Counted from the first letter of the stretch, positions 7,565 through 9,165 are shown. The stretch: 64,000 nt of DNA from Gammaproteobacteria bacterium (GCA_965238175.1 CBDEGZ010000003.1:1568001-1632000); one strand, 5' to 3'. The notes: generated by a model not told the origin, from the sequence alone. A program made the numbers and translations.

Positions 7565-7789
7565 ATTTTTAGCTGCCTGCTGAGAGATAATGATAGATGC
7601 TGGACTTTGAGAGGCCAAAGGTTTTTATGAGATGACTGATCTTTTCTCTGTCAGCTCGGTACTGTTTCAGCTCCTTTGCTTCATTCGCTTACGCTTGCCT
7701 AGGTGGACGCAATTTTAGGATCGTTCTGAAGCAGATTTGAAAGCAAGAACATGGAAAGCTCATATATGGTCTCCTCCCGTATTGCAAGA

Positions 7790-8008
7790 TAAAACATTCA
7801 GATAACAGGGACAGGATTGCTGTCATATATACGGCCTTCAATGAAGTTTTCAACTTCTGACCTGGATGTATTACGCGCCTATTTTCCTTATCAGGTTATC
7901 GGTATTAGTTACCCCTGAGCTCGACAGGTTTTCAATAGGCTGGTTTGACCTGTTATGCCATCTTTAGTTTTACCTTCGCAATTCGTTGAAATGATTTGTT
8001 CTCTCTAT
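7790..8008 (-). ncRNA. Predicted bridge/seek RNA of the IS1111 element (ends approximate)
   Basis: Contains guide-like segments matching both strands of the reconstructed empty target (7914-7921, 7891-7899) and the circle junction (7823-7830, 7865-7869), separated by small hairpins. Confidence 0.75.
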
Positions 8009-9022
8009 TTAGGCCGGTGAGTAGTCATCACCAGAAACCGTTATAGCCCAGGCCATTCTTGCCATTTTGTTGGCATACGCCACACACGCTCGATTATGCC
8101 CCCGCGTCTCAACTAAACGATTAATCCATTGACTCAGTTTATCGCCTTTCGTTTTGGCTCTTGATACCACGGCCTTCGCGCCTAGAATTAACAAACAACG
8201 AAGGTATTTATTGCCGCGTTTACTGATCCCCAGTAGCACCTCTTTACCACCACTACTGTACTGTCGTGGAACAAGTCCTAATGAGGCGGACACATCGCGC
8301 CCTTTGTGATAATGAGCGCCGTTTCCCACTTCATTAAAATACGCGCTCGAGACCATCGGCCCAAACCCTGGAATAGTTTGTAAGCGTTGGCAAATCGCAT
8401 TGTTTTTTGCCGATTGAATGATCAATTGGTCAAATGTCGCAATACAGGCATCAAGTGATTGCCATTGTTCCTTTAGCTGGCGCAGTATCCTTTTGAAAGT
8501 AACGGACAACCGTTCGTTCTCATCACTTAATAGCAACGGGATAGATTGACGTAGGGTATTTAGGCCGGGACGAAGGCTAATGCCATATTCTGCAACAAGC
8601 GCTCTCATTTGGTTACATAATGCGGTTCTTTGTCTGACCGCTAAGTCTCTTGCTTTATGTTGTGCCTGGTTGTCTTGTTGCTCAACTGATTTAATGCCCA
8701 CACTTTTTAAATGAGGTTGTTTCGCAGCAACGGCGATGGCCAAGGCATCGTTATAATCATTCTTATTGCCGATTAGAAATGCGTTAACATGCTGAGGTGG
8801 TAGTAATTTCACCTGATGTCCCTGTTGTTGTATCGCTCGGGCCCAATACTGTGACGTTGCACAAGATTCTATTGCGACTAAACAAGGAGGTTGAGATTGA
8901 AAAAAGGAGAGTACCTGCGCTCGCTTTAACATTTTCTTTTTGATTATACGCCCTTGTTGATTACAGCAGACAGCATGAAATACGTTTTTTGCTATGTCTA
9001 ACCCGATTGTTGTAGTCTTCAT
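8009..9022 (-). CDS. IS110 family recombinase/transposase
   Basis: IGLDIAK, IESC and KNDYNDA (DEDD RuvC-like domain) plus catalytic-serine motif YSSGGK. Probable start MKTTT at 9022 behind RBS AGAGGAG. Confidence 0.95.
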   Translation of the reverse strand: MKTTTIGLDIAKNVFHAVCCNQQGRIIKKKMLKRAQVLSFFQSQPPCLVAIESCATSQYWARAIQQQGHQVKLLPPQHVNAFLIGNKNDYNDALAIAVAAKQPHLKSVGIKSVEQQDNQAQHKARDLAVRQRTALCNQMRALVAEYGISLRPGLNTLRQSIPLLLSDENERLSVTFKRILRQLKEQWQSLDACIATFDQLIIQSAKNNAICQRLQTIPGFGPMVSSAYFNEVGNGAHYHKGRDVSASLGLVPRQYSSGGKEVLLGISKRGNKYLRCLLILGAKAVVSRAKTKGDKLSQWINRLVETRGHNRACVAYANKMARMAWAITVSGDDYSPA

Positions 9023-9165
9023 TTTGGTCTTCTCCTCTTTTGATTGTGTGTATGTCAGTTCAATCATGGCACCTAGATGCCGTTAGGGGGAGGAGACCAT
9101 CACATCAGGTTATGTTCGATCATAAGTCAGGGTAGTTTATAAACTTTTAGGTAATATATCGTGAT

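Follow-up and report, generated by a model that had tools for sequence, protein, structure and literature searches.

An active-looking IS1111-family insertion sequence that very probably selects its landing site through an RNA from its own 3' non-coding region

Introduction

Insertion sequences (ISs) of the IS1111 family carry a non-coding region 3' of the transposase gene, and RNA from this region co-purifies with the transposase (Siddiquee et al. 2024, PMC11187229). In IS1111-type RNAs the block that matches the top strand of the target lies 5' of the block that matches the bottom strand, the target of ISEc11 spans 13 bp, and the transposases measure 330–350 aa with the pattern GL-P----S(t)G (PMC11187229). 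A bridge RNA has been predicted in the right end of 93.0% of IS1111 elements (Durrant et al. 2024, PMC11208160). Here we analyze an element of this family in a stretch of 64,000 nucleotides from a Gammaproteobacteria bacterium (GCA_965238175.1, CBDEGZ010000003.1:1568001-1632000), which we refer to as the window and whose positions are counted from its first letter. We describe the anatomy, copy number and site preference of the element together with the covariation of its RNA structure and guides among relatives, and we propose that the segment 7763–9105 is very probably an active-looking IS1111-family element that picks its landing site by means of an RNA of its own 3' non-coding region. An earlier reading of the window (the original prediction) had called the element an intact RNA-guided recombinase, a description that its sequence makes plausible. 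Our results support that reading with corrections, and they point to the terminal inverted repeat of another repeat as the preferred natural site, with the copy in the window lying off consensus.

Results

Boundaries of the element and its transposase

The features of the element at the DNA level are as follows; the transposase strand is the minus strand of the window.

7763–9105, minus strand: the IS1111-family insertion sequence itself; 1343 bp, flanking core copies not counted; bounds from 25 copies and a comparison with 48 relatives anchored on the subterminal inverted repeats
8009–9022, minus strand: transposase gene; 337 aa from the Met at 9022; PF01548 and PF02371
9088–9100, minus strand: left-end subterminal inverted repeat, GGGAGGAGACCAT on the plus strand; 13 bp, perfect against 7766–7778; conserved among relatives
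7766–7778, minus strand: right-end subterminal inverted repeat, ATGGTCTCCTCCC on the plus strand; 13 bp, perfect against 9088–9100
7761–7762, minus strand: core dinucleotide copy at the right-end junction; CA on the plus strand, TG on the transposase strand
9106–9107, minus strand: core dinucleotide copy at the left-end junction; same dinucleotide as 7761–7762
7755–7760, no strand: right half of the target at the window copy; AAAGCT on the plus strand, AGCTTT on the transposase strand; guide matched at bases 1–4
9108–9112, no strand: left half of the target at the window copy; GGTTA on the plus strand, TAACC on the transposase strand; 24 of 25 copies, GGTTT in one; also present in unoccupied sites

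The host assembly comprises 3.35 Mb with a chromosome of 40% G+C, and 25 places in it match the element at approximately 100% identity. Twenty-four of these are complete copies, among which just 2 internal single-base differences occur in total, and the 25th is cut by the start of the chromosome contig, C3. Going outwards, identity from copy to copy ends at 7760 and at 9112. Among 48 relatives from other genomes, the left end begins with ATG directly after a YG dinucleotide in every case, and the right end finishes in ...CCATATA with YG as the next dinucleotide in 44, which places the element proper at 7763–9105 with TG (CA on the window strand) as the shared core. The original prediction had set an IS1111 element at 7760–9115, between the flanks AAAGC|TCA (7755–7762) and TCA|GGTTATG (9105–9114), with a core of up to 3 nt. 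The flanks are as quoted and the family assignment stands, as judged by the Pfam domains, the 13-bp subterminal repeats and the 25 copies; the limits required correction, and 3 nt is a fair upper bound for a core that measures 2 nt. A 3-nt core was rejected, since YG alone is common to both junctions in the relatives and 7 of the 48 differ between junctions even in the first core base; the third base that both junctions share in the copies of this genome is a coincidence of target and left end. GGTTA as a part of the element was also rejected: it is found in unoccupied joined sites and must therefore be target, one copy has GGTTT instead, and unrelated bases occupy the position in relatives.

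Insertion is specific in sequence and in orientation and proceeds without target duplication, with all 25 copies in the same orientation relative to TCAGGTT and only the core common to both junctions. The 13-bp repeats, set back from the tips of the element by 3 nt at the right end and 5 nt at the left end, agree with the subterminal repeats of 7–17 bp of the IS1111 family, as do the unequal non-coding ends, which measure 246 nt downstream of the gene (right) and 83 nt upstream of the Met at 9022 (left).

A single long open reading frame (ORF) runs from 8009 to 9067 on the minus strand. The relatives align from residue 1–2 of the Met-9022 start, and the longer start at 9067 is probably not used. 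The protein contains the domains expected of the family, PF01548 (DEDD_Tnp_IS110, E 3.6e-16) and PF02371 (Transposase_20, E 6.4e-20), and its segment GLVPRQYSSG and length of 337 aa fit the IS1111 pattern and size range. Residues D9, E52, D89 and D92 are invariant, or invariant in all but one sequence, in an alignment of 36 sequences, and the C-terminal domain aligns to the IS621 transposase (8wt6) at E 2.3e-4 with the Ser-Gly in register.

A conserved RNA structure with two internal loops

We aligned the 246-nt stretch that separates the stop codon from the right end in the element and in 35 relatives (36 sequences, 49–78% protein identity), drawn from Halioglobus, Colwellia, Shewanella, Paraglaciecola and many uncultured Gammaproteobacteria and Desulfuromonadales. 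Short hypervariable blocks break up an otherwise strongly conserved framework in the alignment, which contains the following features.

7782–7981, minus strand: predicted structured bridge/seek RNA region; outer stem 7971–7981 with 7782–7791 encloses a target-binding arm and a donor-binding arm
7916–7924, minus strand: 5' guide block of the target loop, UCGAGCUCA; complement of left-target base −1, the core and right-target bases 1–6 on the top strand; alignment A1 columns 152–160
7901–7913, minus strand: target-loop distal hairpin GGUA-ACUAA-UACC; compensatory changes in relatives at 4 of 4 pairs
7892–7899, minus strand: 3' guide block of the target loop, AUAACCUG; same sequence as left-target bases −5 to −1 and the core on the top strand; A1 columns 179–186
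7864–7870, minus strand: donor loop, 5' block UACAUCC; ACAUC complementary to the core G and left-end bases 1–4 (ATGT)
7824–7830, minus strand: 3' block of the donor loop, AUAUAUG; same sequence as the right end's last five bases and the core

The RNAalifold consensus of the 36 sequences has 45 pairs, 24 of which show compensatory changes. On this structure 96.4% of the alignment cells are paired, against 34–40% when the partners are slid by 1–3 columns, and none of 500 shuffles reaches the observed values. Since G-U pairs are frequent (for example, 33/36 at columns 95/307), the structure fits the transposase strand only. The outer stem is followed by two short stems, and the target arm is closed by 7933–7940 with 7877–7884; in its internal loop, the blocks UCGAGCUCA (7924–7916) and AUAACCUG (7899–7892) stand on either side of the GGUA/UACC hairpin, the first A of AUAACCUG being probably framework. 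The donor arm is built alike, with UACAUCC (7870–7864) and AUAUAUG (7830–7824) in an internal loop around a GGUC/GGCC stem and hairpin. Folded as a single sequence, the 251-nt RNA reaches −61.3 kcal/mol (z = −2.82; 1 of 200 shuffles folds as well) in agreement with the consensus, and all structural helices are intact in the window copy.

The fold had been suggested in the original prediction as a check, and the two-loop consensus bears out its outline. The strings that it quoted are also where it put them: AGCTCAGG is the reverse complement of 7914–7921, ATAACCTGA that of 7891–7899, ACATC that of 7865–7869 and ATATATGA that of 7823–7830, and the GGTA/TACC hairpin lies at 7901–7913.

Target guides change together with the flanking DNA

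We took the flanks of each relative outside its subterminal repeats, compared them with its RNA and scored 17 guide positions. With free placement, an element's RNA matched its own flanks at 14.0/17 positions on average and the flanks of other elements at 11.1/17; a score of at least 14 was reached by 31 of 43 own pairs and by 10 of 1664 mismatched pairs (the RNA of one relative against the flanks of another element). At fixed alignment columns the separation is wider, with means of 13.5/17 for own pairs and 6.3/17 for 1174 mismatched pairs, and with scores of at least 13 in 29/36 and 1/1174, respectively; four of the seven own pairs below 13 look like alignment slips of one column. The window element scores 14/17 against its own flanks by both procedures, so that the claimed match of the guides to their own insertion site exceeds chance.

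The extent of the match defines the reading code. Position by position, the 3' block equals left-target (LT) bases −5 to −1 and the core in 28–36 of the 36 sequences and LT−6 in 7/36, and the 5' block is complementary to LT−1, the core and right-target (RT) bases 1 to 6 in 24–35 of 36 and to RT7 in 8/36. Because the match falls off at LT−6 and RT7, the code comprises 5 + 2 + 6 = 13 bp. The site specified by the RNA is thus CGAGCT-CA-GGTTA on the window strand and TAACC-TG-AGCTCG on the transposase strand (CGAGCTCAGGTTA). The original prediction gave the target as AGCTCAGGTTAT; the RNA instead reads CGAGCTCAGGTTA (LT−5 to −1, core, RT1–6), and the last T of the earlier string falls at a position that matches in 7/36.

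Two blocks in one internal loop thus match the target, each on a different strand, with an overlap at the core, as in bridge RNAs and seekRNAs, and they vary together with the flanking DNA among relatives. In a genome of the same genus (G003), where the right end is 84% identical, the 5' block CCGAAUUCA matches the flank TGAATTCGG at 9/9 positions and the left-end flank ends in TTAACC.

Two relatives that are 77% identical, L031 (from a Halioglobus metagenome-assembled genome, MAG) and L032 (from a Colwellia MAG), target what is nearly one and the same repeat end, in opposite orientation (GATC-TG-AGGTTA and TAACC-TG-AGATCG). This is an apparent natural re-aiming that would flip the orientation of insertion.

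The donor loop

The second loop had been claimed to match the donor junction, and two variable positions bear this out. At left-end base 4, 9 elements have T and 27 have A, and each of the 36 RNAs carries the complement in column 210 (9 T:A, 27 A:U). In the 3' block, 14 of 15 elements with a TG junction have U at the core position and all 19 with a CG junction have C, so that this position follows the junction core in 33/34. The loop therefore matches the joined element ends, as in bridge RNAs and seekRNAs, with a short 5' block (5 nt) in the window element. The element ends are nearly invariant across the clade, which leaves little variation against which the donor loop can be examined.

The main alternative to a bispecific RNA is that only the target loop guides, as a short seekRNA, and that the transposase binds the ends through the long subterminal repeats, the donor-loop matches being scaffold or by-product. 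An 82-nt seekRNA with the target matches alone was sufficient for ISEc11 movement, and how the ends are bound is given as unknown there (PMC11187229). This sufficiency, and the 5' donor block of the window element that pairs over 5 bases only, are the reasons why we retain the alternative as the main rival; the almost invariant ends of the family, with few changes to test, also leave room for it. It leaves unexplained why the RNA mirrors left-end base 4 in every sequence and the junction core in all but one, and why the donor arm is as conserved and as well supported by covariation as the target arm, with compensatory changes at 7 of the 9 pairs of helices 8 and 9. We consider an idle donor loop unlikely.

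Landing sites in the genome

The decisive check proposed in the original prediction was whether other copies in the genome sit in similar sites. All 25 copies carry identical guides, and all 25 have TCAGGTT at the junction upstream of the transposase (GGTTA in 24, GGTTT in 1), with the sequence beyond differing at each; the outcome that would have counted against guidance, identical guides in unrelated targets, was not seen among them. On the opposite side, most flanks end in ...TCTTATCCCGAGT. The unoccupied joined site TCTTATCCCGAGTTCAGGTTA occurs twice exactly and several more times with 1–3 changes. The usual landing site, CCCGAGTTCAGGTTA, is the terminal inverted repeat of a ~215-bp repeat resembling a miniature inverted-repeat transposable element (MITE) and is one base off the guide (T where the guide has C). 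This MITE-like repeat has ~24-bp terminal inverted repeats (TAACCTRAAYTCGGGATAAGAA) and nine full-length copies of 82–100% identity (for example C3:2509894-2510108; others at 123565-123775, 1788508-1788711 and 2300474-2300678), at least five of which end exactly at a junction of the IS; the same end motif closes at least three other repeat families. The site of the window copy, AAAGCT-CA-GGTTA, is non-repeat, intergenic and off consensus, and this copy is one of several insertions at near-cognate sites.

Reconstruction of 24 empty sites allowed a comparison with the guide-predicted 13-mer, CGAGCTCAGGTTA. One mismatch is found in 9 sites, 2 in 8, 3 in 5, 4 in 1 and 5 in 1, so that 17 of 24 lie within 2 mismatches of the prediction. 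The eight bases TCAGGTTA are matched at 24, 24, 24, 24, 24, 24, 24 and 23 of the 24 sites, and the five bases CGAGC at 14, 17, 22, 16 and 3. Three unoccupied one-mismatch sites exist in the chromosome; from its base composition, 0.06 perfect sites and 2.7 sites with no more than one mismatch would be expected.

A second IS complicates some right flanks. This element (1228 bp; IS481-like, by eye from its ORF; 57 full-length copies; 344-aa protein; for example L111 at C3:1331162-1332389) makes 5-bp target duplications (TTAAT, TAAAG and the like). Three copies of the IS1111-family element abut it at their right-end tip, and the other half-junction, ...CCCGAGT-TCATA-TGTAG..., lies at C3:3332122. 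The IS481-like element has apparently jumped into the tip of the IS1111-family element, so that those three right flanks are not original. In a separate case, one IS1111-family copy (C3:589230) lies ~50 nt inside the left end of an IS481-like element.

Several observations count against guidance by this RNA, or limit how strongly the data speak for it. First, each of the 24 reconstructed sites departs from the guide at one base or more, and the C that the guide specifies for right-target base 2 is matched at only 3 of the 24. Second, the sole perfect 13-mer in the chromosome is unoccupied and lies 9 bp from the copy at C3:393960. Third, not every copy is an independent event: copies share their left flanks in groups of 3, 3 and 2, and three such junctions abut the second IS, which leaves ~18 independent right-side junctions. 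Fourth, a circle junction was looked for in the assembly and was not found, no family of Rfam 15 matched the RNA in a search at E up to 10, and the 5' donor block of the window element matches only 5 contiguous bases. Finally, the shared ancestry of related sequences inflates the significance given by the shuffle controls; the controls with slid partners or mismatched flanks suffer less from it.

These points could be taken to mean that the copies are relics of a past spread whose RNA or transposase no longer functions, a view to which the missing circle junction and the vacant perfect site next to an existing copy lend themselves. Near-identity among the 24 complete copies, an open reading frame with conserved catalytic residues and a window copy in which every structural helix is intact all speak the other way, and we regard a dead element as quite improbable.

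A protein that recognized the inverted-repeat end could in principle also pick these sites, with the non-coding matches arising by chance or from captured target DNA, as the preferred site lies within a longer conserved repeat end of 21–24 bp that a protein could read. Across relatives, however, differing flanks come with correspondingly differing blocks at the same two structural positions, with the own and mismatched scores given above; insertions are also found outside the repeat wherever TCAGGTTA occurs with a partial right half, the window copy included; and experimental reprogramming has been shown within the family (PMC11187229). Recognition by protein alone is hardly credible in view of this evidence. 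RNA guidance accordingly remains our preferred explanation of site choice.

The mismatch at right-target base 2 requires separate comment. Among the 21 sites with a surviving original right flank, this base is T in 16, C in 3, A in 1 and G in 1, and the relatives L033 and L037 carry the U that would fit the commonest site. The guide segment GAGCUCA is one change from each of two repeat-end classes in the genome, GAGTTCA and GATCTCA. It is conceivable, though we find it doubtful, that the guide is deliberately or tolerably imperfect at this position. If so, (i) right-target base 2 may not be discriminated in this clade, or (ii) an A-C mismatch beside the core may allow insertion and hinder the RNA-guided reverse reaction, in which case copies would build up at near-cognate sites and vanish from perfect ones. 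Being one change from both end classes, the guide would then be a "generalist" between the guides of L033/L037 and that of L032. A handshake guide, in which the mismatched position would read the donor, was rejected as it does not fit: the left end has AT and the guide AG, and the own target is matched there in 33/36.

Expression and proposed mechanism

Among the sequencing runs on record that contain the stretch, none is of RNA. On the minus strand of the integrated element, a simple scan for promoters turned up no site of sigma-70 type. This lack fits expression from a promoter at the joined ends, a fit that we offer as a reading and not as evidence. As read from the sequence by eye, joining the ends would bring TTGCAA, a conserved part of the outer stem, to 17 nt upstream of TATGAT, in which TA comes from the right end, TG from the core and AT from the left end, and the gene and the RNA would be transcribed mainly from the promoter so formed. 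This arrangement matches the junction promoter that has been invoked for co-transcription of the transposase mRNA and a long RNA in the IS1111 family (PMC11187229).

By analogy with the published biochemistry of the family, the RNA would be made, bind the transposase and direct recombination. We propose that an RNA from the 3' non-coding region (~7981–7782, minus strand) chooses the landing site in the following way: (i) in the target loop, the 5' block UCGAGCUCA would pair with the top strand of the core and right target half, and the 3' block AUAACCUG with the bottom strand of the left target half and core; (ii) in the donor loop, ACAUC and AUAUAUG would recognize the joined ends of the excised circular element likewise; and (iii) the DEDD/Ser transposase would exchange strands at the TG common to donor and target. 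Strand exchange at a shared TG would leave no target duplication.

Further observations on the assembly

We sought an orthologous empty site in 20 related genomes; the flanks of the window were matched in none, and only G003 gave matches, which are fragments of a related IS. A megablast search of a plasmid collection with the element gave no match. In contigs of four sequencing runs, none spans an empty site; two runs (X5 and X7) yielded nothing, one run (X6) gave short pieces of one contig with 90–95% likeness, and another (X1) covers the stretch with a depth of 139 inside the IS and ~12 in the flanks.

Contig C3 begins within a copy of the IS (C3:1-1326), and the missing 27 nt do not occur at the opposite end of the contig, so that the assembly has not been closed across this repeat. 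The identical flanks of the IS clusters, shared by 3, 3 and 2 copies, suggest that ISs have mediated duplications or rearrangements. At C3:1393269-1393345, a perfect-looking palindrome of 77 bp consists of two left ends of the IS (~45 nt each) head to head, with TAACC-TG flanks on both sides. Remnants of diverged relatives (79–91% identity) lie at C3:2357906-2358291 (L026), 1154711-1154798 (L027) and 2897423-2897503 (L028); each starts with a left end after TAACCTG or TAATCTG, and L026 runs on into the start of the transposase. The assembly also holds contigs C1 (10,967 bp, 55.8% G+C) and C2 (8,481 bp, 43.9% G+C); the base composition of C1, far from the 40% of the chromosome, raises the possibility of a plasmid or of DNA foreign to the genome.

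Discussion

To the RNA-guided recombinases under development for genome editing, this element contributes a further natural example that is well documented. Its 25 copies with one set of guides form a graded series of natural on-target and off-target sites, and the clade of at least 36 relatives lets the reading code of 5 + 2 + 6 bp be derived from sequence alone. The same clade gives in-silico support to the view that IS1111-type RNA also reads the donor ends, a point left open in the experimental IS1111 paper. For annotation of this genome, the analysis accounts for a 25-copy repeat and its preference for the ends of another repeat, and probably for part of the history of rearrangement.

Comparison with known systems

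IS4321 and IS5075, also of the IS1111 family, reportedly have the terminal inverted repeat of another mobile element as their specific target, a finding said to go back to Partridge and Hall in 2003. The window element resembles them in that its target is the inverted repeat of another mobile element; in its case the target is instead the ~24-bp ends of a ~215-bp non-autonomous repeat and of the repeats that share these ends. IS621, of the IS110 group, has CT as its core, where the window element has TG.

The closest likeness is to ISEc11, ISPa11, ISKpn4 and ISPst6, as described in PMC11187229. Like these, the window element has a DEDD transposase of ~340 aa with the GL-P----S(t)G pattern, subterminal inverted repeats, a long non-coding region 3' of the gene and overlapping matches over a target of ~13 bp, with the block complementary to the top strand 5' of the bottom-strand block, and relatives have been redirected naturally through changes in the two blocks. 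The window element differs from the four in sequence and in target, the end of a MITE-like repeat.

IS621 and its bridge RNA (Durrant et al. 2024, PMC11208160; structures 8wt6 and others) share with the window element the target and donor internal loops with a guide for each strand, a dinucleotide core common to donor and target and a catalytic Ser-Gly in the C-terminal domain. In contrast to IS621, the RNA of the window element lies 3' and not 5' of the gene, the strand matches come in the opposite order, the subterminal repeats measure 13 bp instead of 2–3 bp, and the protein alignment is confined to the C-terminal domain (E 2.3e-4). All IS1111 features that can be examined in sequence are present here together with the two-loop guide architecture; the element is an ordinary, well-preserved example of a mechanism published in 2024, and the mechanism itself is not new.

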